Origin: a virus
Taxonomy: Duplodnaviria; Heunggongvirae; Uroviricota; Caudoviricetes
DNA: 64,000 nt
IMG/VR virus record: IMGVR_UViG_3300045988_138358
Direction: 5' to 3' (one strand)
Both the position numbers and the translations under genes were made by a program. Under the pieces are notes generated by a model. That model worked only from the letters and a program-made list of their open reading frames with translations. It had not been told where the DNA came from and made no database searches. This document shows, one piece after another, positions 21,951 to 38,953 of this stretch. Within the stretch, counting starts at the first letter, position 1; each line of letters begins with the position of its first letter.

Positions 21951-22250
21951 ATGAGTCAAGGTAATGGTGACGGAGCTGCAAAGTGCAGAATCTCCACTTG
22001 TTTGATTAATGACAAAAAAATAGAACCGTGCGCGGCGTTGGCACAATCTCTGGAGCAGGATGCTGAATACACGACGCGGAAAGGTCTGCTGAAATACAAA
22101 ATCTATAACCATGAATTAATTCATTCACAAGACCTGATCATGCTGCGATCAGGCGAGTTTTCTAAATCGCCGATTCGAATTTCATTTTGCCCGTTCTGTG
22201 GTGAAAGTCTGAAAACGCGGGAAGCGGAGGCAACCAGTGAGCAAAATTAA
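21951..22250 (+). CDS. hypothetical protein with possible zinc ribbon
   Basis: 99 aa; CxxxC...CPFCGE cysteines. Confidence 0.4.
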   Translation: MSQGNGDGAAKCRISTCLINDKKIEPCAALAQSLEQDAEYTTRKGLLKYKIYNHELIHSQDLIMLRSGEFSKSPIRISFCPFCGESLKTREAEATSEQN

Positions 22251-22854
22251 CTATCAAGAACTGCGCGAGGCGGCGGAACAGGCAACGCAAGATGAATGGG
22301 TAGCATATATTTTGCCGGGTCATAACGGCATTTATCCTGCGCGCACATCTGAGGGTAGGCATTGCGGATACTTTATTGACTGGCCTGGCATTGATGGACA
22401 AAGGAATGCTGGTGCTAATGCCCGTTATATCGCTGCTATCCCACCAAAAGTTGCGTTGTCACTACTGGATGAAATTAAACGTCAGGAGGACTCAAATATT
22501 GATGCTATGTGCCGTATTGCAGAGCTTGAAACTAATATCGCGGCGCTGGTGGCAGAGAACGCCGGACTGAAACACGCAATGGCCGTAACTCTTGAGCATG
22601 TGTCGGTAACGGATGCAGGGCAGGCCGGAGTTGCTGCGATGATTATTAATGATGCCCTGCACCACAGCGAAACGCCAGCTACCGACGCTTTCATGGCGGA
22701 AGTGCGGGCGCAGGGGGTGGATATGGCTCGTAACGCGATGATTGATTTTGTTGATGGTGAAGTTGGGCCAAACAAGAACGTTCCGGGTCTGATTAGAGGC
22801 GCAGAGATATGCGTAAGTATTGCTGAACAGCTTCGCAAAGGAGGCAACCAGTGA
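22237..22854 (+). CDS. Ea22-like protein
   Basis: INYQELREAAEQAT N-terminus and [16 protein letters not shown] tail shared with paralogs. Confidence 0.6.
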   Translation: MSKINYQELREAAEQATQDEWVAYILPGHNGIYPARTSEGRHCGYFIDWPGIDGQRNAGANARYIAAIPPKVALSLLDEIKRQEDSNIDAMCRIAELETNIAALVAENAGLKHAMAVTLEHVSVTDAGQAGVAAMIINDALHHSETPATDAFMAEVRAQGVDMARNAMIDFVDGEVGPNKNVPGLIRGAEICVSIAEQLRKGGNQ

Positions 22855-23336
22855 GCGAAATTAATTACCAGGCACTGCGTGAGGCGGCGGAACGTGCAAC
22901 TCCAGCAATGGAACGCCTGTTAATGTTGCCAGCTGATGATGATTTGTTAAGTGAACAGGAACTTAAAGATTACGGTGTGGATATTGATGCGCTCAACGCC
23001 TTCAAATTTCTGATCGGACCAGAAACCGTGCTGGCGCTGCTGGATGAACGGGAAAGAAACCAGCAATACATAAAACGCCGCGATCAGGAGAACGAGGATA
23101 TTGCGCTAACGGTAGGGAAGCTGCGCGTTGAGCTTGAGGCAGAAAAACAGCGGGCAAAGGATCTGTTTATGGAAAATGCTCGGCTTAAGTCAGGTATAGC
23201 CGGTCTGATACACCTCGGTATTCGATATGCGGATGTTGAGGTCATGAAAATTGCTGGAGATGCCCAGCTTTCTACCCCATGCACTGACAGCATCATAAAC
23301 AGCATTGCAACAGGCATTCGCATCGAAGGAGAGTGA
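22851..23336 (+). CDS. Ea22-like protein
   Basis: INYQALREAAERAT N-terminus, same paralog family. Confidence 0.55.
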   Translation: MSEINYQALREAAERATPAMERLLMLPADDDLLSEQELKDYGVDIDALNAFKFLIGPETVLALLDERERNQQYIKRRDQENEDIALTVGKLRVELEAEKQRAKDLFMENARLKSGIAGLIHLGIRYADVEVMKIAGDAQLSTPCTDSIINSIATGIRIEGE

Positions 23337-23337
23337 C

Positions 23338-24111
23338 ATGACCACTTTAACCGACAAAGAACTGATTAAAGAAATCAAAGAGCGCATAGGCAGCTTGGAC
23401 GTTCGAGACAATATTGAGCGCCGTGCTTATGAAATTGCACTGGCATCGATGGAAGCAGATCCAGTTGCTTATATTTTCAAACATCCGGCCGGGAAATTAT
23501 TCTGGGCTTTAACGGATGAAAGCAATAAAGAGCAAGCGGACGTTATTCCTGTTTATGCCGCCCCTCCAGTACCAGTAGTACCTGCTGCATTACCTGAGAA
23601 CGACGATGATGACGGGCATGACATTGATTATCTTGAGCCATCTGAAGTTTACTCGCTTGGGCGAACAGCTGGCTGGAACGCCTGCCGTGCTGCCATGCTT
23701 CATGGTGCCGAACCTGTAAGCCAAACTTACAAGTTGCCTCCCCTGTCATCCAACGAAGTAAACGACGCGGCATGGAAATTACGCAACATGCTTACTGAAC
23801 ACGGTCCTCTTAATGGGCGTCAGTTCAACAATCTGAAAGGTTGCTTCTATGAGGCATTAAAGGTCGCAATGCGCAACTATCCGGTAACTCCGGATGGTTG
23901 GATAAGCTGTAGTGAGCGAATGCCGGATACCAAAACAGCCGTTCTTGTTGCCAAGGAGTTTGATAGGAAAGGTGACTGGCGAATGAAATGGGCGACTTAC
24001 ATCCCGGGGCATCCTGACGCTAATGATGGGTGGATCATTCCTGGGGCGTCGTGGAAACCGTCACACTGGATGCCGCTACCAGAACCGCCGCAGGAGGTTA
24101 ACCGTGGCTAA
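23338..24111 (+). CDS. DUF551-like protein
   Basis: C-terminal WISCSERMPD...WMPLPEPP typical of DUF551; start at internal Met with GAAGGAGAG site. Confidence 0.55.
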   Translation: MTTLTDKELIKEIKERIGSLDVRDNIERRAYEIALASMEADPVAYIFKHPAGKLFWALTDESNKEQADVIPVYAAPPVPVVPAALPENDDDDGHDIDYLEPSEVYSLGRTAGWNACRAAMLHGAEPVSQTYKLPPLSSNEVNDAAWKLRNMLTEHGPLNGRQFNNLKGCFYEALKVAMRNYPVTPDGWISCSERMPDTKTAVLVAKEFDRKGDWRMKWATYIPGHPDANDGWIIPGASWKPSHWMPLPEPPQEVNRG

Positions 24112-24385
24112 CCTTCAACTGGCAGTTAACGGTGAATATTTCGACCAGATGAAGTCTGGAGAGAAAACGGAAGAGTATCGCTTGTGTAATGACTACTGGA
24201 ATAAGCGAATTCTGTTCCGCGAGTATGACCGCCTGATTATCACAAAGGGATATCCGAAGCGCGATGATTCCAGCCGCAGAATAGACGTCCCGTATGACGG
24301 ATATGAAATCAAGACAATCACGCATCCCCACTTCGGCGATAAACCGGTAAAGGTTTACGCGATAAAGGTAAATATCAATGGCTAA
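24104..24385 (+). CDS. small ASCH/PUA-like protein (tentative)
   Basis: Probable GTG start after CAGGAGG; the ORF track extends upstream into the previous gene. Confidence 0.35.
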   Translation: MANLQLAVNGEYFDQMKSGEKTEEYRLCNDYWNKRILFREYDRLIITKGYPKRDDSSRRIDVPYDGYEIKTITHPHFGDKPVKVYAIKVNING

Positions 24386-24782
24386 ATTTCAAAGAAATAT
24401 TATTTTTCTGGCAATGTTATCTGCCTGTCATTTATCTCATGCATCGGTTATTGCTGCGGGAGCTGCGGCAACCGCTGTAATTAGCGCCTCATCCGCCAGC
24501 GAGCATGAGCAACGTACTGCAATCAATGCATCTGCCAATACCACCACGGTATCAGTAACACAAGAAAAGCCGAATATCGGCTTTGTTACTTGTGGCAAGC
24601 GATATGGTGAAATGGTTGGCTCTCTTGGTTGCGTAATGTGGCAAGACGACGACCGAACAGAAATTCCGTGGAACTCATGGCCTGGCTACATTCTTGGTAA
24701 GAAGCTGCCCACCAGCTATGAAGTAAATGCTATTTCGTTCGACCAATATAACAGTGTTGCAACGGTCTATTTCTCTTATTAA
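24378..24782 (+). CDS. secreted protein, unknown
   Basis: Signal-like N-terminus NIIFLAMLSACHLSHA. Confidence 0.45.
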   Translation: MAKFQRNIIFLAMLSACHLSHASVIAAGAAATAVISASSASEHEQRTAINASANTTTVSVTQEKPNIGFVTCGKRYGEMVGSLGCVMWQDDDRTEIPWNSWPGYILGKKLPTSYEVNAISFDQYNSVATVYFSY

Positions 24783-24794
24783 CACGGAGTAATT

Positions 24795-25088
24795 ATGTGG
24801 CGCGGTAATAATCATGGTGGAAGCCAGATGATACTTACCGAATATCAGCTCGACCACAAAACCAATAAATCACGCTCAGTATATTTGCTTCGGCACAATA
24901 GCCGCGTAAGGAATACCGTGCTGGAGCAAAATCTGACCGTTGAAATGGATAATTCGGGGAACTTCAAGCCAACAATTTCGCTTGATGATTTTCCGCGTGG
25001 TTTAAGCGAAAGAGAAGCCATGCTGAAATTAGCAGAATGGCTTCAGAGGTTAAGTATTGTTATTGAAGATAACTGGAGTCAACCATAA
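24795..25088 (+). CDS. hypothetical protein
   Basis: 97-aa ORF. Confidence 0.4.
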   Translation: MWRGNNHGGSQMILTEYQLDHKTNKSRSVYLLRHNSRVRNTVLEQNLTVEMDNSGNFKPTISLDDFPRGLSEREAMLKLAEWLQRLSIVIEDNWSQP

Positions 25089-25343
25089 TGAAAAACAGAA
25101 AGAAATTTTGGATTACTTTTTTGTTTGTATGCCTTTGCGGTTTATTTATTTTATTAGCTGGTGGTGTTAAATGGGGTACGGTGGGGTGTGGTTTTTGGAG
25201 CGGGGTTACTCTTTTCGCAGCCTGGCTTATCGCCAACTTTGAGTCAGGCGGAGGGTATTGGTAAGTGGTCTTATTCCCCACTTCATAACGGATATCACGC
25301 TCGTGATAACGGATATTCCAATTTTGATAACGGATAAGGCCAA

Positions 25344-25553
25344 ATGAAGCATTTTTTAAGGTTGGCATTTGTTCTGGCGCTATTTGATCCTCCGGCTGCA
25401 ATGGCTGGAGAACAGCAACATTGCACAAAAGAGAATGAACCCCCTTTCATCGTTATTCAATGCGATGACGGAACGGTGACTGTGGTTAATGTAAGAAATG
25501 ACCGTGTAGCTGTTTGCCGTAAAGGCGAACCATGCAAGGAAATAAAACTATGA
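25344..25553 (+). CDS. small secreted protein
   Basis: Signal peptide MKHFLRLAFVLALFDPPAAMA. Confidence 0.4.
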   Translation: MKHFLRLAFVLALFDPPAAMAGEQQHCTKENEPPFIVIQCDDGTVTVVNVRNDRVAVCRKGEPCKEIKL

Positions 25554-26308
25554 CAAGAATCACTAAAGAGCGTATTTCAGATATTATTTCCCGTATCGAA
25601 ATGTATGGTCACGGTGCTGGATATACGGCAGATGAAGTATTGGCACTTGCCCAAATGGCTTTGGCGGCTTGCAAAGATGATAAAAAAATGAAGCTTATCG
25701 ACTTGTTAGTGAAGGAGCTGCCTAAGTGCGGCGGGTGGCCTGATGGTATGATCGATTGTCGCCTGCTCAGTGCCAATTTAATGGCGCCATGCGCGACTTT
25801 TGCTTTTGGCTCAGACCACAAAAAAGACACGTTCTTTGGGCGCAATTTTTGTTGTGAGATTGAGCTTCCAATTGGTGACCTTGATAGCGATGAATACCTG
25901 TCAGTTGTCACTCGCGAACAATACGAATCAGCTCTCATAGCGTCGCAGAAAGTCGAGTTCAATGGTGATGAACTTGAAAGTAAGACTTACAGGTTGGATT
26001 TTGGGCAATGGCTGGAACAGCAACGCGGGAAAATCGATGTGGACTGTGGTTGTGTGTCCACTGAAACATTCATGCACTGGCTGCGGGTAGCTTACGAGGC
26101 TGGCAACCATCCGGATTTTCCGGATAGTTCCCAACAATCGCCCAAGAAAAGCGTAAAAACCACTCTGGAAAGAGGCTATCTTGAGGCCGCATTAAAGATT
26201 AAGCCTGGCCATACGCTAGGCGTCATTGATGCCATGTTGGTTCATGAAATGGCGAAGGCTTTATTGCCGCTGGTGGCTGATAAAATTCCGAATAAAGCCG
26301 ATATCTGA
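25550..26308 (+). CDS. hypothetical protein
   Basis: Start at internal Met (MTRITKER), 4-nt overlap with upstream stop. Confidence 0.45.
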   Translation: MTRITKERISDIISRIEMYGHGAGYTADEVLALAQMALAACKDDKKMKLIDLLVKELPKCGGWPDGMIDCRLLSANLMAPCATFAFGSDHKKDTFFGRNFCCEIELPIGDLDSDEYLSVVTREQYESALIASQKVEFNGDELESKTYRLDFGQWLEQQRGKIDVDCGCVSTETFMHWLRVAYEAGNHPDFPDSSQQSPKKSVKTTLERGYLEAALKIKPGHTLGVIDAMLVHEMAKALLPLVADKIPNKADI

Positions 26309-26347
26309 TCACCATGCTAAAATCCCCTCAATTCACAGAGGGGATTT

Positions 26348-26620
26348 TTGTATATGTTGCATAGAGTTTTATGGAAAAGCGTTATTGTCGGCGCGATACT
26401 GGCTATATCTGGGTGTGCAATGGTGCAATACAACGACGGTGAAAAGGTAAGCATACAGTCAGATGGTTGGTATGGCCTGGATAGCCTGCAAAAAACCGCA
26501 GATAAAGCCTGTCAGCAATATGGGAAGTCTAAAGCAGTATATCAGCATAGCGCGAACGCTAACCCTCATCTAGCGCCCGGTTCTGGTGTTCAGAATACCA
26601 TCTGGAAATGTGAGCCTTAA
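26348..26620 (+). CDS. small lipoprotein (putative)
   Basis: Signal peptide ending in lipobox-like LAISGC. Confidence 0.45.
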
Positions 26621-26622
26621 AT

Positions 26623-26874
26623 ATGAGCGACTGGAATATTGCAGCTAAAAGTCAGGAAGAACGGGATAAGGTTAACGTTGATCTGGCTGCCAGCGGTGTG
26701 GCGTACAAAGAGCGATTGAACATACCTGTCATAGCTGAACAGGTAGCCCGCGAGCAACCAGAGAATCTGCGCACCTATTTCATGGAACGGCTACGGCACT
26801 ACCGGCAGTTAAGCCTCCAGTTGCCAAAAGGGAGCGATCCGGTGTATCAGAACGAGGATGCACCAAAAAAATAG
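26623..26874 (+). CDS. hypothetical protein
   Basis: 83-aa ORF 3 nt after previous stop. Confidence 0.4.
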
Positions 26875-26959
26875 CGGCAAGATGGGGGAGAAATGTGATT
26901 AGCCCCCAGCGTGGCGCGCCTACAAACCCAGCTTTCACAAACTATGCCTTTTCAATGTA

Positions 26960-26997: not shown

Positions 26998-27387
26998 ATG
27001 GGCTTCCCTTCTCCTGCGGCGGATTATGCAGAGAGCCGCATTTCTCTTGATCAGCAACTAATCAGACATCCTTCCGCGACCTACTTCATGCGGGCGGCAG
27101 ACAGCCATCACCGTGAGGGAATATTGCAAGGTGCTTTGCTGGTGGTTGATTCCTCACTTACTCCGGTTGATGGTTCACTGCTTATATGCGCTATGGAGGG
27201 TGAATATCGCATAAAGAGATACAGGAAGTATCCGCGCCAGCACCTGGAGGATTTAAGCACCGGGAAGAAAGAGGCGTTACCAGTAGATGACGATGGATAC
27301 ACGGGCAGTAATGCTGTTTTTGGTGTGATCACTCATGTCATCAATGATGCCCGAAGTGGGGAGTTTGATTATAGACCTGTGATTTAA
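26998..27387 (+). CDS. humD: UmuD'-like protein (pre-processed form), HumD-like
   Basis: MGFPSPAADYAE... aligns with UmuD starting just after its autocleavage site; Ser and Lys of the S24 dyad appear retained; no umuC follows. Confidence 0.75.
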   Translation: MGFPSPAADYAESRISLDQQLIRHPSATYFMRAADSHHREGILQGALLVVDSSLTPVDGSLLICAMEGEYRIKRYRKYPRQHLEDLSTGKKEALPVDDDGYTGSNAVFGVITHVINDARSGEFDYRPVI

Positions 27388-27432
27388 GGCGCATAAAGAA
27401 GCCCGCCAGACCAGGCGGGCTTTTTGTTGATA

Positions 27433-28527
27433 TCATTCAATGATTTTTTCGGCTGTCAGCCAGCTAATTTCGTGCCTGTCTTTCGGCGGTTTTAGCATGT
27501 GAGCATATTCAGCGACATGCTCCCACGGAATTGTTTTTGCCCACTCAACGATAGCATTGTGATCTGCAGTGAAGAGTGGAATAGTGTGCGATTTCAACCA
27601 TTCTAATGTCGTGACGCCATGTTTTTTGGCGTGGTGCTGCGCATGATGCCGGGCTATCACTCGTAATGGCATTGTCCATTCACTACCATCAGGCATCGAA
27701 AAGCGCATTGTCTTCGGCATATCTGATTCAAGAACAGCCTCCCTAATACCAGGGAACTCACCAAGAATCATACGACGATAGTCATCACTATTTCGCCCGC
27801 CATACCTTTCGGCAAAATGATCAAGATATTCTTGGGTAATAAATGGTGAATCCTCCGCACTCAGCTTAATGGCTTTATATACACCACTCGGATTATCTTC
27901 AGCTAAAGCACGTCCATGATGTGAATCATAAAAAAAGCCTATTTCCTCTGGTGACGGAATTGAAGTGAGCAATATGCGTGAATCACCACTAGTCATGCTT
28001 GCCCACACAATGCTGTATGCCCGATCGCTGATATGTGCGGAATCCACAATAATGAATAAAAGATGGTCGGCGTAGTGACCTGCAATGCTATCTTCATAGT
28101 TAAGGCGGTAGTTACAAAAGCACATTCCCCAAAATTCATTGAACATCAGACCGCTATCACCGACCTTAAAATACTCAATGATAAAAGGTTGTTTTTTCAG
28201 CAATGCCTCCCAACATTGCCACACATATGCAACAATTCCTCTTTTGCAAACATTTGATTTTGGATAAACAATTACTGTCCGGGAATCAGGATACATAATC
28301 GTATAAAGGGTACTAATAACAGCAAGCACTTGCGGTCGTCCGATCCCATACGGAGTGGTGACAGTAGCTTTTGCATTATTGGGCTGTATAGCTTCAACAA
28401 TTTGTTGTTGCTGGTGGCTTAAATCAATATCAAACAATTCTTTTGCTGCCAGTACCCAATTGTCTTTATATTTCTCCACCAGCGACAGCCAGCGCGGATC
28501 TTTATAAATATTGCTCTTAGTCGCCAT
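27433..28527 (-). CDS. terminase large-subunit paralog with degenerate ATPase motifs and divergent C-terminus
   Basis: Aligns with PacB-like protein at 33675-35183 (HQQQQIVEAIQ, FYDSHHG...NP.G...I.L..E.SPF), but Walker A GTGKS is replaced by GIGRPQ and Walker B DE by DS; start at internal Met. Confidence 0.55.
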   Translation of the reverse strand: MATKSNIYKDPRWLSLVEKYKDNWVLAAKELFDIDLSHQQQQIVEAIQPNNAKATVTTPYGIGRPQVLAVISTLYTIMYPDSRTVIVYPKSNVCKRGIVAYVWQCWEALLKKQPFIIEYFKVGDSGLMFNEFWGMCFCNYRLNYEDSIAGHYADHLLFIIVDSAHISDRAYSIVWASMTSGDSRILLTSIPSPEEIGFFYDSHHGRALAEDNPSGVYKAIKLSAEDSPFITQEYLDHFAERYGGRNSDDYRRMILGEFPGIREAVLESDMPKTMRFSMPDGSEWTMPLRVIARHHAQHHAKKHGVTTLEWLKSHTIPLFTADHNAIVEWAKTIPWEHVAEYAHMLKPPKDRHEISWLTAEKIIE

Positions 28528-29284
28528 CTGCCACTTCCTTAACTTCTTCTTTGGCCTGTTCTGCAATCGCCGCACGGCATTTCGCCCTGGCCGTAGCGAT
28601 TGCTTCAGCACGCACATCATCAGGAATCGTTGACGTGATATACATATCCAGTTCTTCGGCGCGGAACACTGTTTGGTCCAGATATTCGCGTAGCATCCAG
28701 GTAAATTCGAAATCACACGCGATAATCTCTGCGCTACCTTCTGCACCATTTGGGAAATGAATAAAAGCCTGTTTAGCCAAACCGATAACACGACATGCGG
28801 TTGCCAAAACAGCGGCAACCAGGTTTACATTTTCACACGCTACGGGCTGATTAACGCCGGAGATTACTCCATTTAACTGTCGGTTATATGGAAGGTAGTT
28901 TGAGATGCGTTCTACGCGCCATGTGCCAGTCAGGCTGCCATTCTTAAAGATAATTGGTGTAACGGATAGCCCAAGCTCGCGTATAAGTCGTTGCGCTATA
29001 GCAGGATCATTAAACATGTCTAATGCTACACATTCGAAAGACTGTGCAAGGGTAAACAGTTCTTCCAGAGAGTAGTCTTTGCCCCTGGCGGTGATGTAAC
29101 GATGAACGCCGCTTTCTGCATCACTCCATATAGCTACGCCATGCTCTTCATTCAGCTCTTCATTAAAGCCGAGATACGTCATGATAGTACGTTCAATCGT
29201 GTCAAACGGCAGTGACATGTCGGCGTTAACAGCCACCAGCAGGCCATTACGCAAGCGGTATTGAATTGCTTTAGTATTTTCCAC
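28517..29284 (-). CDS. hypothetical protein
   Basis: 255-aa ORF in the dUTPase operon. Confidence 0.5.
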   Translation of the reverse strand: MENTKAIQYRLRNGLLVAVNADMSLPFDTIERTIMTYLGFNEELNEEHGVAIWSDAESGVHRYITARGKDYSLEELFTLAQSFECVALDMFNDPAIAQRLIRELGLSVTPIIFKNGSLTGTWRVERISNYLPYNRQLNGVISGVNQPVACENVNLVAAVLATACRVIGLAKQAFIHFPNGAEGSAEIIACDFEFTWMLREYLDQTVFRAEELDMYITSTIPDDVRAEAIATARAKCRAAIAEQAKEEVKEVADGD

Positions 29285-31151: not shown

Positions 31152-32180
31152 TTACGAATCCATCAGGCGGCTATTAGCCCCCACAGACACGCCGCCACGG
31201 CGAAGATACCGCATAAGTGTTTCCGGTTTCTTCCAGGTTCCTTCCTGCATGATCTCCACCATAGACACCTGCTTTTCAGCCATATCAATAGCGGCCCCGA
31301 CGCGTGCACTATGCCCGGTCCACGTCCGGTATCTTCCTTTGTTTGGCGTAGCATCTCTTTTATTCAGCAACACCCAGGCGTCGCTGAATATTTTCTCCAT
31401 TGCAGGTGCAGTAAGGGGCGTTGTCGTGATCCTGGCCTTATTGCTACGGTGTATCGGCGGGAACAGCACTGCGTCAGGATGTTCGCGAAGCCCGGAAACA
31501 TCCAGCCAGTCATTCAGCACAGCGGTAGTGCGACGGGAAAGCACCTTATCAAGCCCGGCGGCGGTCGTTATTGTCTTCGTGTGTGAAATATGTAGCGTGA
31601 CAGTGTCACCTGTTTGGTCCAGATCTCCTACACGAATACGCGAGATTTCCGACATACGCATCAGCGTATTGTATGCAACAAAGAGAAAAGCCCGGTTGCG
31701 CAGGTCCACCAGCCGTTCTGACCTGGACAACAGGACGTCGAGCAGTTTCAGATCGTCCCACCGCAGCGGTATAGCCTGGCCTGTTCGTTCGCCTTTTTCA
31801 GTTGCCGCTTCGCGCCGGATGCGCCGCATAGCCAGAGAAACACTTTTATCATCCGAAAGTGGCGGAAGGCCACAATGCGAAAGCAGCATGTTCAGCATGG
31901 CGTAGTGCTTATCAATGGTGGTCGAAGCCAGATCGGCATCATGCAGCTGAAGAAAATACTCGCGGGCCATTTCTGGTGAGATCGGAAACCAGGCAAGCTG
32001 GCGAGCGTGACACCAGCGCGCCCAGGAATGAAACACCAAACGGAGGTCGCGCAGAGTATTCGGCGCATAAGCTCCCTGGTCATTCATGAACCGCATAAAG
32101 TTTTCTGCGGCTTCCTGGTACTCTTTGCCAATGTTGCGCAGAAAACCACCGGAACTGCCAGAGATAATTAATTCACTCAT
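31152..32180 (-). CDS. dre: Cre-family tyrosine recombinase, Dre-like
   Basis: Roughly 45% identity to P1 Cre by eye across the catalytic domain (SLAMRRIRRE, AYNTLMRMSEISRIRV, WTGHSARVGAA, LMRYLR); paired with a rox-like site. Confidence 0.9.
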   Translation of the reverse strand: MSELIISGSSGGFLRNIGKEYQEAAENFMRFMNDQGAYAPNTLRDLRLVFHSWARWCHARQLAWFPISPEMAREYFLQLHDADLASTTIDKHYAMLNMLLSHCGLPPLSDDKSVSLAMRRIRREAATEKGERTGQAIPLRWDDLKLLDVLLSRSERLVDLRNRAFLFVAYNTLMRMSEISRIRVGDLDQTGDTVTLHISHTKTITTAAGLDKVLSRRTTAVLNDWLDVSGLREHPDAVLFPPIHRSNKARITTTPLTAPAMEKIFSDAWVLLNKRDATPNKGRYRTWTGHSARVGAAIDMAEKQVSMVEIMQEGTWKKPETLMRYLRRGGVSVGANSRLMDS

Positions 32181-32332
32181 GAAACTATTTAACCTCTATA
32201 TACAGATGACGCTACGCGAAAAATATAAAAATGACAGGGTAGCTATAAGTTAATTTTCAAGATTCAAGCCTTTGATTCGATGCACGTATTTTCAGTGATG
32301 TCAATACTGATCATCTACCCATGATTATAGCC

Positions 32333-32364
32333 TAACTTTAAATAATGCCAATTATCTAAAGTTA
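32333..32364. other. rox-like recombination site (14-bp inverted arms, 4-bp spacer)
   Basis: TAACTTTAAATAAT-GCCA-ATTATCTAAAGTTA; differs at one right-arm position from the D6 rox site as recalled; 152 bp upstream of the recombinase start. Confidence 0.8.
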
Positions 32365-32565
32365 GAAATTTAGGAATTTTTTTCCTTTCCGCGCAGATGG
32401 GCAATGCATTGCTGGTGTGGGCTTTAAGTTATGCCTGGCAGTTTTTAAGCAGAATTTTCTAAATTGGATGATAAAAAAATGCATCTTGATCCTTTACTCA
32501 CCCTGTTATTCGGCATAGATTTGTCATAGTAATTTTATGTTAGAAAACTAAATCGAGTAGGAATA

Positions 32566-33603
32566 ATGAGTAAGAAGTCGATCGAGAAAGAGTACAAACG
32601 GTTCCTGCAAACCGCTGAACGGTGGAAAGAGCTGGTGGTCGCAAACTCTGTTTTCCATGATACCAGTTATTCCGGCGAGGAATTCCGCCATGTTGCACTA
32701 ACACATGATCAGAATGTGCTAGAAGAAGCTGAAAAGTGCCTCACAGAATGGAAAGCCTTTGTTGACTTGTGCCGTAACGCTGACGGCAAAGCGTCTAACA
32801 TTGTTGAGTCTGTATATTCTCCGATCCCATTCATTATCGAGGACACAAATCAAAGCACGCATATTGTTGTGCAAAGCGCGACCACCACCCGCTCATTTAC
32901 GCGCGAAAATCTGCTCAAAAAATATGATGCAATTATAAAGAAAAGCCTGAAAAACAAGATATTTTCGCAGATTGTTGGTGCACTTGAAGAAGAGCGCCGT
33001 TTTTTCGCATCAGAACCTGAAGGGGAAGTTTACCGGGCGCGCAAAGATGGATACACAGATGTAGTGCTTACAACAAACATTGAAGGCAGCAATGCTCTGT
33101 CACGATTCAGGGTAGGCGCACACGGAGCCTTAGTGTTCGCAAAACTTCCGAACACCACAGTGCCCGTTGTTAATAATGTCGGCGAACGTCGCAGCATTAC
33201 TATTTATTCTGGGGTTGAGTCGATACCTTGCGGCCTGCTTGGTGACTTTAGTCTCTATCGCGTTCGCGATCTGGAGAAACACCAACCAAGCTATGTTGCG
33301 AAGTCATACATCTTGCGAAACATCGACATCCGCAATGAGAGCTTAAAGAACAAATCAGCCAAAATGCTTGAGGAAGCCGATCCGGCTATTCGCCATATCA
33401 TTGAGCGTAAAATACAGACAGCACGCGAAGCGATGGCGAGACTGAATAAAATGGATCTGGAGTTGTTAGACGTAATGATGACATCCGGAGATGACCTGAC
33501 AGGCATAAAACTGACAGACGCGCGGAAAAGATACGGTAAAACCATAGAAGAACGTTACGGGTTCACTTTCTCCCAAACACAGCACGCCGCTAAACTCTGG
33601 TAA
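32566..33603 (+). CDS. hypothetical protein, candidate regulator
   Basis: 345 aa; an operator-like motif (TATGTTAGAAAACTAAAT) sits about 15 bp upstream of its ribosome-binding site. Confidence 0.45.
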   Translation: MSKKSIEKEYKRFLQTAERWKELVVANSVFHDTSYSGEEFRHVALTHDQNVLEEAEKCLTEWKAFVDLCRNADGKASNIVESVYSPIPFIIEDTNQSTHIVVQSATTTRSFTRENLLKKYDAIIKKSLKNKIFSQIVGALEEERRFFASEPEGEVYRARKDGYTDVVLTTNIEGSNALSRFRVGAHGALVFAKLPNTTVPVVNNVGERRSITIYSGVESIPCGLLGDFSLYRVRDLEKHQPSYVAKSYILRNIDIRNESLKNKSAKMLEEADPAIRHIIERKIQTAREAMARLNKMDLELLDVMMTSGDDLTGIKLTDARKRYGKTIEERYGFTFSQTQHAAKLW

Positions 33604-33674
33604 TCACAAGCCCCGCATTGCCGGGGCTTTATCCGGTGCGCCGTAAAACCCCGTCCTTCAGGGCGTGGAGGATG

Positions 33675-35183
33675 TCAAATATCCAGATCTGGCATTTCTA
33701 CATCTGCAAGAACCTGATCGCGGAAGGTAGCCATTTCAGCGCCGATATCTTCATTAGCAGGAACATAGTCCACCAGCATTGTAAAGCAGTAGGTATCCCA
33801 TCGGTCAGGTGATTTGATGTTCAGCTTTTGCCGCATGTGCTCCTTGCGCATCATCGCCATCTTCCCTTCTTCATTAAGTAAAAAGGGGATTTTTGACGCT
33901 TGCTCTGCCGTTTTAGGGTCGCTGTCTATTCGCATACGACCTGACTTTATGGCATCACGAGCCATAATATTTGCGTAGGCACGCTGGTTAACAAAACGCT
34001 CCTTGTCTTTGTTCGAAAACATGGGTTTCCCCCACCGAATCCGTACCGGATTAGCCCCACGGCGCACCAGCTGCGCACAGGTATCTGAACCAAAACCGTC
34101 TGCGTCAACCGCGATTGTAATATTCGGGTATTTATCCGGCGTGCATTCGTTGTATATAAAGTCAGCAAAAGCCAGCGGGTCCATAGTCCCTGGCATTTCC
34201 ATTACCTTAAAGTTAACAACACGCCGCTTTTCCCGGTGACCAGACACTTTACAGATATTAAGAACTGACTTGTCTCGCCCGTTACCAACGTCAGCAGTAG
34301 CCACCCATCCCCAGTTTTTCTCCAACAACACCTTGCGCCGCGCAGCGCGATCGCATTCATCACGACCAAGCAAATAGCCGTTAATCTCCCGAGGAAACTG
34401 ACCAAGAACCTTGACCATGTACTCAATAGAATCGCGCCCGCCATATTCTAGGAGTTTCTGCCTGATGAATTGTGGTGTGACGAACGGTGATTCTTCTGAG
34501 TTAAGAACAATTGCTGTCCAGATCCCTTTCGGGTTGTCTGGGGTTTTAGCTTGAGAATGGTGCGAATCGTAGAAATAACCACTTGGCCTTGTTGGCTGGG
34601 ATAGCATCAACATTCGGTTATCTTCTTCAGTCAGAGCGCCAGTCATTACGCCGATCGCTTTATCAGATATACCTGATGCTTCATCCAGAATTAGAAGCAA
34701 ATGTGCCGCGTGCTCCCCCGCCAGAGCTTCTTCGTTACCGAGTCGATAGCCTTTGCAGAGAACTTCCCAGATCCCCTTTCGAGAGCGTTCATAAAACATG
34801 GTGTCAGACAGGACAAAATAGGTCTGTAACCACCCATGACGCTTAACGGCATTCGCCCAATACTGTTTAACGTATTTGAATACACCTGTCTTAACCTGAC
34901 CTATTTTGTTAGCAACAATGATGACACGGGCATCGGGGAACAGAATCAAATAAATCAGCAACAACATAGCCGTTAGCGACGATTTCCCTGTACCGTGACC
35001 AGAGGTAACAGTGGTTCTGCTCCCTTTTTGCTGTACGGACTGGATAATCTCCTGCTGCTGGTGGGAGGGAAACATCCCGAATATATCAACAACAGCCTGG
35101 GTAAAGTTGTAGCGGTATTTGATTACCATATCGCGCCAGCGTGGATCGCTGGTGACGCATTTAATCTTGCGCCCACCAGCCAT
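33675..35183 (-). CDS. pacB: terminase large subunit (PacB-like)
   Basis: Walker A TSGHGTGKS, Walker B LLILDEASG, C-terminal Asp-rich nuclease-like domain. Confidence 0.85.
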   Translation of the reverse strand: MAGGRKIKCVTSDPRWRDMVIKYRYNFTQAVVDIFGMFPSHQQQEIIQSVQQKGSRTTVTSGHGTGKSSLTAMLLLIYLILFPDARVIIVANKIGQVKTGVFKYVKQYWANAVKRHGWLQTYFVLSDTMFYERSRKGIWEVLCKGYRLGNEEALAGEHAAHLLLILDEASGISDKAIGVMTGALTEEDNRMLMLSQPTRPSGYFYDSHHSQAKTPDNPKGIWTAIVLNSEESPFVTPQFIRQKLLEYGGRDSIEYMVKVLGQFPREINGYLLGRDECDRAARRKVLLEKNWGWVATADVGNGRDKSVLNICKVSGHREKRRVVNFKVMEMPGTMDPLAFADFIYNECTPDKYPNITIAVDADGFGSDTCAQLVRRGANPVRIRWGKPMFSNKDKERFVNQRAYANIMARDAIKSGRMRIDSDPKTAEQASKIPFLLNEEGKMAMMRKEHMRQKLNIKSPDRWDTYCFTMLVDYVPANEDIGAEMATFRDQVLADVEMPDLDI

Positions 35184-36547
35184 TAGTCATCCTCCGGCGG
35201 TTCTATCGCAATATCATCATCTCCGGCGTCATACCCTGCATCTGATGCATCATAATCACCGTAAATTTCAGCCGTTGCCGAAGGGTCAATGTCCAACTCT
35301 TCATCGTTGGCCTCGAATTCCCCAGCCTTACGCTCGCCATTGTGGTCGTAATCTCCGCACCCCAGATCTTCAACAATGGTTGCCACATCCGCCCGGCGCT
35401 CTGCCAGCCATTGCGGATGGTTAGCCTGAAGCGATGCAAACTCCTTCGCTTCTTTGTCCAGCTGTTCATCATCAACATCATTGATGTCAGAAACTGGAGG
35501 TTCGAGAAGAGTGATAGCTTTCGCCGCGCGCGCCGCGAGGATAGCCGGGACACTGACACCCTGACGCTCGATGTATTCAGCAACACCGATATCGTCCAGC
35601 TCCTCGCGCTCACGCATACGTATAGCGGCGGCGATAACTCTGGCTGCGCGTGCGTCAGCGCCAATGCGATATTCAATCTCTTTGCCACGCTGTTCGGCCT
35701 GTAGGCGTGCTAATTCGAGTTTTTCTCTGGCCTCGGCCTCTCTGAATGCTTGCTGGCGAGCACCCTGACGAAGTTTTTCATCACCCTGTCGCAGCTTTTG
35801 TTCGGACTGATATATCGCTGCCAACCTACTGATAAAATCGTTCATGTAGTAGGCCGCGTCACTGATTAGACCGAGAAGTCGCTGCCCAGGGTGCATTCCT
35901 TCTGGCTGTTCATCACCCAGGGCGTCTATCTCCGCCTGTAGGCGTTCGGCCTCCTGATCAACAATGCTTTGGTACTGAAGTGCGCGTTCTTGCGCCATTT
36001 GAATTGCTAACCGCAGGTGCTCTTCTGCGCCGTTCTTCATCATGTCGCGAGCCACACTCGTAGTGGGCAACGTGGCACGCTGCACAGCACCGCCAGGGAT
36101 CATTGCTGAAGATCCCTCGATTTTTGAGGCGCATTTATCTTCGGTGGGGATCATTTTCGCCATTTTTTCGCGCAATGATCTCCTGACAGATTCTTTTATC
36201 TCATTGTTATTATTTGCATTATTTTCATGATCCGAAGTTTTCTTTCTCGGCATACTTCGGAAAGAACCTGTGCCCTGCGAATTGTCAATTTCTGTAAATT
36301 TTGTTGTTTCTGTACCCTCTTCTGGTCTTTTTTTTGCTCTTCCTGCCCGTTTTTTTTGAGGTGATTTGGTGCTTTTTTTTGTAGTCTTCACCTGCGACCG
36401 CACCTCATTTTTTTTCATATTGAGATGCTTTCTGGCGGTATTGAAGCTAAGGTCGTGTTGCTCGCAGTATTCCTTTACGGTGATCCCTTTTTCTTCACGC
36501 AACGCTATAAATTTGGCGCGGTGCTCTTCCCAATTAACCAGACTCAT
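35183..36547 (-). CDS. pacA: terminase small-subunit / pac-recognition protein (PacA-like)
   Basis: N-terminal HTH (EYCEQHDLSFNTARKHL), long basic and acidic coiled regions; stop overlaps pacB start. Confidence 0.65.
   Translation of the reverse strand: MSLVNWEEHRAKFIALREEKGITVKEYCEQHDLSFNTARKHLNMKKNEVRSQVKTTKKSTKSPQKKRAGRAKKRPEEGTETTKFTEIDNSQGTGSFRSMPRKKTSDHENNANNNNEIKESVRRSLREKMAKMIPTEDKCASKIEGSSAMIPGGAVQRATLPTTSVARDMMKNGAEEHLRLAIQMAQERALQYQSIVDQEAERLQAEIDALGDEQPEGMHPGQRLLGLISDAAYYMNDFISRLAAIYQSEQKLRQGDEKLRQGARQQAFREAEAREKLELARLQAEQRGKEIEYRIGADARAARVIAAAIRMREREELDDIGVAEYIERQGVSVPAILAARAAKAITLLEPPVSDINDVDDEQLDKEAKEFASLQANHPQWLAERRADVATIVEDLGCGDYDHNGERKAGEFEANDEELDIDPSATAEIYGDYDASDAGYDAGDDDIAIEPPEDD
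36095..36235. other. candidate pac site: GATC-hexamer cluster inside pacA
   Basis: Five GATC within about 135 bp (near 36098, 36111, 36149, 36177, 36229), each in a TGATC-like hexamer; P1 pac is a cluster of TGATCA hexamers in the 5' part of pacA. Confidence 0.4.
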
Positions 36548-36936
36548 AAAGCAACACCACGCTTTTTAACGGCGGCATTCCACAGCTTATTCGCCATGTC
36601 CACCAGCTCTCGTTGCTCTTTTCGCGCCTGTTCGACTGATTTCCTGCTACAGTTTTTAACCAGTAAGCTACCGTATTCAGGGGTGCGCCCGCGCACCTTG
36701 AACTGATATCCGTTCAGGCCATGCAACCAGTATTTCCGTGGGTAAACACGATCATCAAGCTCACAAATAGCTCGGCTTGACCGCACAAAATGCCGAATGA
36801 TGTTGGTTACACTTACTCGTGAAACATGAAGGTGAGGATATTTTTCTTTAGCTAGAGTGGTGATTTCGGTGACTGTCAGATAGCAGTCAGCCCTAATCAT
36901 GATATCCGCAATTTCTGCGCTGCTGATATGCTCCAT
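36544..36936 (-). CDS. small HTH protein upstream of pacA, possible late-promoter activator (Lpa-like)
   Basis: 130 aa; first gene after an operator pair; assignment is by position only. Confidence 0.3.
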   Translation of the reverse strand: MEHISSAEIADIMIRADCYLTVTEITTLAKEKYPHLHVSRVSVTNIIRHFVRSSRAICELDDRVYPRKYWLHGLNGYQFKVRGRTPEYGSLLVKNCSRKSVEQARKEQRELVDMANKLWNAAVKKRGVAL

Positions 36937-37011
36937 TAATCCCCCAGGCAGGAAATGACCGAGGGGATGATAATGAGAATGTTATTTCTGTATAGACTGG
37001 CAAAAAGTTGG

Positions 37012-37046
37012 TTATATTAGAAAATTAATTCCATTCATCTAACACT
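37012..37046. promoter_or_regulatory. inverted pair of TGTTAGA operator-like half-sites upstream of the pac operon
   Basis: TATTAGAAAATT ... TCTAACAC; on the gene strand the distal half-site is followed by TATAAC. Confidence 0.55.
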
Positions 37047-37437
37047 ACCAGCGAGATAAGCGAACGACGTGTTTTACCTTAGCGATCCACTTACCACGTG
37101 AGTTATTAATTACGGCCTGCGCCACCTTTAAGCTGACTTCAAAATCAGCCTTACGACCATCAGAATCCACCAGCGTTGCACCGTCTATTTCCGGCAGGCT
37201 TAAATAATCCTGTTCTACCTCTAATGGCATTGACGGCTCTCTGAATGGTGTCAATTGCCGAGCTTTCCAGATAAAGCGAACTCTCAATCCCCTATAAGCC
37301 ATTACCATGTAGCCTGTTATCGTGCTCTTATGGCCTGCATCAGTACGCGCAGCATTACACGATACAATCTTACAGGTGACGATATTCCACTCCACGTTGG
37401 AGACTTCGTGAATGCTTAATTTTGTTGTCTCGTACAT
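37045..37437 (-). CDS. hypothetical protein
   Basis: 130-aa ORF. Confidence 0.4.
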   Translation of the reverse strand: MYETTKLSIHEVSNVEWNIVTCKIVSCNAARTDAGHKSTITGYMVMAYRGLRVRFIWKARQLTPFREPSMPLEVEQDYLSLPEIDGATLVDSDGRKADFEVSLKVAQAVINNSRGKWIAKVKHVVRLSRW

Positions 37438-38012
37438 CAGAATGCCTCCCAGTCAGTTGCGATAATATCCACGCCAGTTGCGAACCAGTCTGTCTGCGCC
37501 TGTAAATCCCCATTCATCATTACCAGGCGAGGCATAACCATCACATCGCACCCTTCCACAATATCGAATGCCTCTTCCGGCAAGAATTCGAAGAGCTTTT
37601 CTTTGCTGCCAATGCTGCCACGGAACATCGATAAATAGCTCCCTTTAGGCCATGATGCCCGGCGGGCATCCAGCCCCTTCATCATCCAGAACATGGCGGC
37701 AGAAAAATTGATGTTCTTTTTGGCGATGAAAACATTATTGGCTTCTGTTTGCTTCAGAAACTTAATTAGCCTTGCCATCGACTCGGATAACGCTACGTAT
37801 GGCTCATGATTGGCTGCGGACACGCTCACACCATGTAATCCAACACTGACTACCGTCATATCGCCGCTTTGAGCGGTTTCAATGTTGACACCTTTGCGAA
37901 CTAACGAGGCATAAAGTTCCTCTCGCTTTTGTGTCCAGCGTTCCCGCTGACCGATGAAGTCACTCAATATGAGGTCTGCTTCTGCATACGCGTTATCGTT
38001 CGCCGTTAACAT
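37437..38012 (-). CDS. hypothetical protein
   Basis: 191 aa; AMFWMMKGLDARRASW motif similar to the protein at 29291-29755. Confidence 0.45.
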   Translation of the reverse strand: MLTANDNAYAEADLILSDFIGQRERWTQKREELYASLVRKGVNIETAQSGDMTVVSVGLHGVSVSAANHEPYVALSESMARLIKFLKQTEANNVFIAKKNINFSAAMFWMMKGLDARRASWPKGSYLSMFRGSIGSKEKLFEFLPEEAFDIVEGCDVMVMPRLVMMNGDLQAQTDWFATGVDIIATDWEAF

Positions 38013-38465
38013 AACGTCTCCTTTTTACACGCGCGACCATCCCTCGGTTAAACCGATAGAGATGTCGAAACTTCGTATTAATTAAGGGTTACAGCCTGAG
38101 CGGCTATATGATGAATTGAAAGGAGTTGTGGCGGTGGTGCCTCCACCTGCCAGGTTAGCCACTCCTGGCGACGTCACTTATCAGAACGTAGTGAATGAAA
38201 ATGGCTTCGTCACGAGCGCATAGCCGCAATTACCACAACGGAAACGGCGCTCACGCTAATTAAACGCCTTTTCCTGTTGTGCGCCGTACTCTTCCGGCTG
38301 TCACACCGAATCGCCAGGGTGGTGAGTCCTCGGTCCGACGATATGAACGGGGCTTGCACATTCCGGCTACCTGGTTTGTTGCCTGAGCTAGGGGAAAAGG
38401 TAACCCCTTTAACGTCACCAGACCGCTAACGACGCATGTGCCATACGCCGTGTTACAACCAAATA

Positions 38466-38541
38466 TGGTGGCCCCTACCGGACTTGAACCGGTGACCGTG
38501 CGATTATGAGTCGCCAGCTCTAACCACTGAGCTAAAGGGCC
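38466..38541 (-). tRNA. tRNA-Ile (anticodon CAT, ileX-like; Met not excluded)
   Basis: Reverse complement folds as a canonical cloverleaf with anticodon loop CTCATAA and encoded CCA; very close to E. coli ileX as recalled. Confidence 0.8.
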
Positions 38542-38953
38542 AGATTACTGTTAATTCCGCTTACGCTTTTTGCCAGAACCGCGTAAGGCTTTTGCCGCTT
38601 GCTCGATCCCATATGCAACCACCAGCAGAAATAAAAATGTCCAACCAGGGTTCTTATCGGCAAAGGCCCAAAAATCCATCACTTGCAGCTACCTTTTAAG
38701 ACAAAACGCCATTGCTGTTAGATTGCGGTGCCTGGTGCCTCCAGGTGACGTTAACCAGTTAACAATTAACGCCGGGATGTTTGATTTAACCACTAAGGAG
38801 GATTGTTTTAACTGTTCCGCGTGCGCTTAGCCGCATTCACCGCAATGGTAAGAGCACTTGGCTGGCTGGGCGGCGATGACGCCTGTACGCATTTGGTGAT
38901 CCGGTTCTGCTTCCGGCATTCGCTTAATTAGCCAAATACTCTTAACGTTGCGC

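Follow-up and report, generated by a model that had tools for sequence, protein, structure and literature searches.

The 64-kb stretch of viral DNA analysed here, referred to below as the window, is best explained as a D6-like plasmid prophage with its Dre/rox system of site-specific recombination, in which one arm of the rox site holds a single C for T substitution (the C allele) that is very probably tolerated by Dre. The system is already known, and the C allele is both frequent and natural.

The gene dre (31152..32180, minus strand) encodes a Cre-type tyrosine recombinase of 342 amino acids plus stop. Alignment of the translated open reading frame with the Dre protein of phage D6 (AAV84949.1) revealed identity at 342 of 342 residues; the recombinase in the window is Dre itself. 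The initial annotation had described a "Dre-like" Cre homolog, a description that is right about the Cre type but too weak in the word "like". Its estimate of about 45% identity to P1 Cre was too high, as the measured value is 41% over 322 aligned residues (133/342, or 39%, over the full length), in agreement with the Dre/Cre identity given in the literature. At the nucleotide level, dre differs from the D6 gene at 25 of 1029 positions, and since these differences are exclusively synonymous, the recombinase is under purifying selection in the elements that carry the C allele. A Pfam search of the protein returned Phage_integrase (E = 5e-17) together with an N-terminal SAM-like domain. The complete catalytic set (R175, K202, H290, R293, W316, and Y325) and the Dre-type specificity residues R44, P259, and K263, as listed by Chuang 2016 and Karimova 2016, are all retained. 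Among phage records, Escherichia phage D6 alone was matched by megablast (96.6–97.0% DNA identity), and the matched D6 records annotate the region as dre plus the rox crossover site. A search of the PDB yielded no Dre structure, the relatives there being Cre and engineered Cre variants only (best E-value 5e-69).

The rox site of the window (TAACTTTAAATAATGCCAATTATCTAAAGTTA; 32333..32364, plus strand) matches rox at 31 of its 32 positions and can be written as TAACTTTAAATAAT-GCCA-ATTATCTAAAGTTA. The 14-bp left arm, which is proximal to dre (32333..32346), and the asymmetric 4-bp spacer GCCA (32347..32350) are canonical and the same as in D6, while the right arm, proximal to c1 (32351..32364), reads ATTATCTAAAGTTA instead of the ATTATTTAAAGTTA of D6, so that the two half-sites are TAACTTTAAATAAT and TAACTTTAGATAAT. 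The single difference is a T to C change at site position 24 (window position 32356). Counting outward from the spacer, this is base 6 of the right arm; counting inward from the end of the arm, it is arm position 9. The reference for this comparison is the rox annotated in GenBank AY753669 (TAACTTTAAATAATGCCAATTATTTAAAGTTA), whose sequence is the same as that of the rox cloning oligonucleotides in Supplementary Table 2 of Karimova 2016. Both agree with the rox sequence that the initial annotation had quoted, and its description of one right-arm mismatch, C for T, leaving the arms slightly asymmetric, is confirmed by T24C in an otherwise canonical site. It had also placed the 32-bp site 152 bp from the recombinase; the gap between the site and the ATG of dre is exactly 152 bases (32181..32332), and the spacing in D6 is equal. 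The two alignments it had proposed, of the protein with published Dre and of the site with published rox, gave 342/342 and 31/32, respectively. The site is unique in the window even when three mismatches are allowed, no match to it was obtained in 100 shuffles of the window, and its inverted arms were recovered by an independent repeat search.

The genetic surroundings are those of a plasmid prophage of the P1/D6 type, with the site located between dre and c1. As much as 56.7 kb of the 64 kb can be aligned collinearly with the D6 genome (91 kb) at 87–97% identity, and the gene order dut, two small ORFs, dre, rox, c1, and pacB is exactly that of D6. The first gene to the right of rox, in the position of D6 c1, is the prophage repressor gene c1 (32566..33603, plus strand), whose product is 90% identical to D6 C1. 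The dre-rox region matches 120 plasmids in PLSDB, mostly of ~90 kb and non-mobilizable, and D6-like replicons were found in 101 of 5,426 complete E. coli genomes, always as a plasmid and never in the chromosome. Its collinearity with D6 and the plasmid-only occurrence of its relatives identify the window as a plasmid prophage of the D6 type, in line with the initial annotation.

Several accessory regions differ from D6. One is a 4.6-kb segment (22268–26902) without D6 counterpart, which holds a DUF551 gene and a tandem pair of Ead/Ea22-like genes (22237..24111); neighbouring ORFs gave no Pfam match. Another (27380–28543) is absent from D6, which has orf109, phd, doc, and pdcA in that place. 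It encodes on the minus strand (27436..28530) a 365-residue protein paralogous to the N-terminal ATPase half of the terminase large subunit PacB, 37% identical over 258 amino acids to the PacB of the window itself and without the nuclease half. The motifs of this paralogue look degenerate (Walker A GTGKSS replaced by GIGRPQ, and Walker B LLILDEASG by LFIIVDSAH). It matches PHROG 5902, a family of unknown function, from end to end, and had no Pfam or PADLOC match.

The abundance of the C allele was determined in two collections. In PLSDB, which was searched by megablast with 30-nt queries whose 28-nt seeds were each forced across the variable base, the C allele is present in 28 plasmids and the canonical T in 110, so that C represents about 20%. 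The 28 plasmids come from Escherichia (24), Shigella (2), and Salmonella (2). An IMG/VR search in which any base was allowed at position 9 of either arm yielded 30 sites; 21 of them are canonical, while 9 (about 30%) carry the C allele of the window. Left-arm position 9 is A in all 30, the change being confined to the right arm. A second IMG/VR census, anchored on the Dre protein and hence unbiased by site sequence, gave the same allele split plus a few spacer variants. The Dre proteins encoded beside C-allele sites are intact and 89–100% identical to Dre, and identical Dre sequences adjoin both alleles. The C variant is therefore a common and stable polymorphism, and the natural rox variant that the initial annotation had seen in it recurs across many independent records. 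Because the difference is a single base, a sequencing or assembly error in the window was also considered; it is refuted by the recurrence of the same 30-mer in 28 independent PLSDB plasmids and of the allele in 9 IMG/VR contigs, which makes an error of this kind negligibly probable.

The searches also brought up rox sites in other settings. E. coli ECCNB20-2 contains two rox-bearing replicons, L146 (NZ_CP034789.1, pTB422) and L147 (NZ_CP034790.1, pTB423). One is a D6-like phage-plasmid with a Dre of 100% identity and the C allele of rox; the other, an IncFIB/MOBH plasmid of 159 kb, encodes a Dre homologue of 90% identity and carries a canonical rox, with IS903B and IS26 flanking the homologue and its site. 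This pair of replicons indicates that dre-rox cassettes also occur outside phage-plasmids, and that both alleles can share one cell. Several further canonical rox sites lie on plasmids of 145–218 kb. In addition, some spacer variants found beside Dre-like genes in IMG/VR are candidates for natural heterospecific rox sites: L053 (spacer CCCC; Dre 99%), L067 (spacer GCTA; Dre 70%), and L063 (site TAACTTTAAATAAC-TCCA-ATTATCTAAAGTTA; Dre 89%). Another candidate is the site TAACTTTATATAAT-GTCA-GTTATATAAAGTTA of L069 and L070, which accompanies a recombinase 55% identical to Dre.

The variant base falls within the triplet (C8G9T10/A25C26G27) by which rox and loxP are told apart (Karimova 2016, Fig. 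7 legend) and which faces helices B and J (Karimova 2016). In our alignment of the two sites, its counterpart is loxP position 25, the partner of left-arm position 10. In the molecular dynamics model of Dre/rox (Soni 2020), it is base pair A12/T64, and contacts are seen to the neighbouring T63 and T65 and none to T64. The spacer and its adjacent bases decide which rox sites can recombine together (Chuang 2016). The published rox variants all alter the spacer and neighbouring bases, and no published experiment on arm position 9 was found. Likewise, neither the variant site, on either strand, nor each variant arm appeared in any paper of the searchable full texts, a set that does not include Sauer and McDermott 2004 and Gilcrease and Casjens 2018. 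The "one point mutation" reported for E. coli DEC12A (Karimova 2016) affects the Dre protein (99.7% identity) rather than rox. The recombination of pox by Dre was considered as a test of arm position 9 and discarded: native pox is asymmetric at the same arm position, whereas the primers of Karimova 2016 reveal that the version used in the assay had been symmetrised and carried the rox base there.

A wider view of this position was obtained from a scan of the recombinase family that used one genome per species. The E. coli representative lacks a D6-like plasmid, and hence the scan contains only distant relatives. It yielded 74 of them (L072–L145), 41–47% identical to Dre and located on large replicons of Pantoea, Rahnella, Mixta, Erwinia, and allied genera. 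A 12-8-12 lox/rox-like site could be predicted in 50 of the 74 loci, usually 150–370 bp upstream of the gene. The arm consensus of these 50 predicted sites is TAACTT[T/C][A/G/C][T/A/C]ATA, with the variation clustering at the loxP/rox triplet. Arm position 9 is T in most loci and C in L114 and L122, compared with A in rox and G in the right arm of the window. The arms are symmetric in 21 predicted sites, differ by one mismatch in 24, and by two in 5; with 29 of 50 sites mismatched between arms, a one-base asymmetry is normal for natural sites of this family. Some family sites hold exact loxP-type 12-nt arms (TAACTTCGTATA) around different spacers; in one of them, L134, the accompanying recombinase is 43% identical to Cre and has kept R259.

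These relatives bear on the idea that the C variant marks a co-evolved heterospecific pair of recombinase and site, with a specificity distinct from that of Dre/rox. In distant relatives, arm position 9 does change along with the recombinase, as in L069/L070, with T on both arms and a recombinase 55% identical to Dre, and in L114/L122, with C on both arms. A Pantoea relative with a loxP-type-arm site retains R259 of Cre, and the comparison fits a scheme in which the triplet and helix J co-vary when specificity truly changes, which is not the case in the window. Here, the protein is 100% identical to Dre, a single arm is changed, the spacer is canonical, and identical Dre proteins flank both alleles. 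The first and the last of these observations effectively refute a new specificity, which we regard as having almost no chance of being correct.

Dre/rox recombination is expected to proceed in the window as it does in D6. A Dre monomer would bind each inverted arm of the 32-bp rox, two occupied sites would synapse into a tetramer, and strand exchange would take place in the central GCCA region with no need for accessory proteins. Arm binding, synapsis of two sites, and cofactor-free strand exchange have been established for Dre/rox (Chuang 2016; Karimova 2016). By analogy with P1, two roles can be inferred for the system: the resolution of plasmid dimers to monomers, which would ensure proper partition, and the circularisation of terminally redundant phage DNA after infection. 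The same two roles, dimer resolution and cyclisation of the infecting DNA, are assumed in the literature on D6-like plasmids.

From the population data, it is highly probable that the C allele yields a working site, and one compatible with canonical rox, given its unchanged spacer. Recombination of two such sites by Dre receives indirect support from the recurrence of the allele next to an intact dre that is under selection. Tolerance by Dre is the most likely outcome because the spacer that governs site compatibility and the adjacent Dre are both unchanged, and because, of the four half-sites that a synapse-forming pair brings together with its two arms per site, the change affects a single one. 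At the same time, some loss of half-site affinity is plausible, given that the changed base lies inside the loxP/rox specificity triplet, and a mildly weakened site could have persisted in many plasmids as well.

In a stronger form of this argument, the change would make the right arm a partly disabled half-site, bound more weakly by Dre, so that the site would recombine noticeably less well and the C allele would travel as a slightly deleterious hitch-hiker on the c1 module. Helices B and J contact the specificity triplet to which the base belongs, and a change in both arms was never seen beside a near-identical Dre, which could mean that the double change is not tolerated. However, an allele present at 20–30%, in several host genera, in several Dre backgrounds, and in at least two right-flank lineages is not what a disabled site would lead one to expect, nor is the purifying selection that acts on dre in the elements concerned. 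The Cre/loxP system also offers a precedent, as lox66 and lox71 each have a single heavily mutated arm and yet retain recombination with Cre. A partly disabled half-site is for these reasons unlikely, and a decayed relic site was rejected on the same grounds that count against the other alternatives. Tolerance of the C allele by Dre is the reading that we retain.

The distribution of the allele also reveals a link with the DNA that follows rox. From c1 onward, this DNA occurs in two discrete types, about 83% identical to each other, and the c1 region of the window belongs to the second. As only two types of right module are found among close relatives, the sequences suggest two immunity or packaging groups of D6-like elements. 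In the window, the c1-pacB-pacA-lpa module (32365..38681) is 83–89% identical to D6 at the DNA level, and the first ~90 bp right of rox cannot be aligned between the two. On the other side, the 1.18 kb left of rox (dre and the intergenic region) forms a continuum of 96–100% identity that is independent of the right-hand type; L039 and L065, for instance, are 99.4–99.7% identical to the window on the left and 99.6–99.8% identical to the D6 type on the right. The C allele is present in 8 of 9 loci with the right module of the window type (the exception being L042) and in none of the 17 loci with the D6-type module. In the informative recombinants, the switch between types, as bounded by the closest discordant markers, falls between ~36 bp left of the site and site position 24, an interval that includes the spacer.

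Such a pattern fits what would be expected of Dre-mediated exchange at or near rox between co-resident elements. In P1, lox acts as an exchange point in mixed infections, and the genetic map of this phage is linear as a consequence. Ordinary homologous recombination in the conserved dre-rox stretch may be the source of the switching instead. A third right-flank lineage (GAAGGG...) carries C in the IMG/VR loci L063 and L064 and T in plasmid pTB422, which indicates that the polymorphism arose more than once or moved between lineages. We regard the C allele primarily as a marker of the module that starts at rox on the c1 side. A broader proposal, possible but rather doubtful at present, is that rox acts as a natural module boundary at which Dre-mediated exchange between co-resident D6-like elements re-assorts the c1/pac immunity-packaging module relative to the remainder of the genome, the C allele being the right-arm signature of one of the two c1 modules. 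If so, sites with the C allele and canonical rox recombine together in nature, and Dre reads arm position 9 loosely in spite of the specificity triplet, which would give recombinase engineers a mutagenesis result supplied by nature. This role of rox would represent an extension of the classical biology of P1 lox.

A sigma-70-like promoter directed toward dre is predicted to overlap rox (32324..32351, minus strand; 11 of 12 consensus positions). Its −35 hexamer TTGGCA (32351..32346) lies in the rox core and is separated by a 16-nt gap from the −10 hexamer TATAAT (32329..32324), located just beyond the left arm. It is the best match within a 20-kb stretch. In D6 and in every IMG/VR relative with Dre identity as low as 70%, the −10 hexamer is conserved at an equal spacing, and the −35 hexamer is unchanged among the relatives except in the spacer variants L053, L063, and L067. 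The promoter function of these hexamers is inferred from their sequence. With a conserved predicted promoter whose −35 hexamer lies inside the rox core, Dre bound to rox could repress its own gene.

This arrangement raises the question of whether the C allele acts mainly on transcription, tuning dre expression or Dre autoregulation. The predicted promoter is strong and conserved, and the variant base lies 5 nt upstream of its −35 hexamer. However, the promoter is a consensus match, the changed base falls outside both hexamers, and nothing ties the allele to an expression difference, all of which renders an effect exerted chiefly through transcription very improbable.

Dre/rox is a standard tool of genome engineering beside Cre/loxP, and the system itself is not new. 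What the window and its relatives add is that about a fifth of natural rox sites carry, next to an unchanged Dre, a one-arm transition at a position that separates loxP from rox. If its tolerance is confirmed, the C allele would provide a natural data point on the half-site tolerance of Dre, with a bearing on the prediction of off-target pseudo-rox sites and on the design of left-element/right-element rox pairs. It would also mean that rox, as P1 lox, marks a recombination boundary in the evolution of phage-plasmids. None of these implications would surprise specialists.

The closest known system is the Dre/rox of D6 (Sauer and McDermott 2004; AY753669, MF356679). The recombinases are identical and the genomes collinear, and the sites, which coincide at 31 of 32 positions, share spacer, orientation, the 152-bp distance to dre, and the location between dre and c1. 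The window differs in T24C of the right arm, in the 25 synonymous changes of dre, in a c1-pac module of the second type (about 83–89% DNA identity, with C1 at 90% protein identity), and in the replacement of several accessory genes.

Cre/loxP of P1 shares its enzyme family and fold class with Dre/rox; the recombinases are 41% identical, and all the catalytic residues are conserved. In both systems, inverted arms surround an asymmetric core, the site lies upstream of the recombinase gene and by c1, and the host element is the same kind of plasmid prophage. However, Cre has K43, R259, and G263 where Dre has R, P, and K, and the loxP triplet C8G9T10 contrasts with TAA in rox. The window does not conform to Cre/loxP, defined by Cre and by arms ATAACTTCGTATA around an 8-bp spacer: its arms show TAA (TAG in the variant arm) instead of CGT, and its spacer differs. 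The annotated cre promoters are clear of lox, unlike the predicted dre promoter over rox. According to the literature, Cre and Dre do not cross-recombine.

Panto, the Cre-type recombinase of Pantoea sp. aB, shares 52% identity with Dre, and the two enzymes recombine each other's sites (Karimova et al. 2016). The arms of pox are nearly those of rox, and native pox is asymmetric at the same position as the site of the window (TATATAAAG vs. TATTTAAAG), although the pox used in the assays had been symmetrised by hand. Protein and spacer are unlike those of Dre/rox. The window does not belong to Panto/pox, whose site is GAAACTTTAAATA-ATAAGTCT-TATTTAAAGTTTC, as its protein is Dre and its site differs from pox in the spacer and in the outer arm base.

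Finally, the C allele resembles arm mutants of the lox66/lox71 type and the variants rox7, rox8, rox12, rox61, and rox85 in that these are non-wild-type sites still processed by the wild-type enzyme. In the rox variants, the spacer and adjacent bases have been altered, and the pairing of sites has changed in consequence. In contrast to these engineered variants, the allele of the window is natural, keeps its spacer intact, and has a single inner arm base changed.
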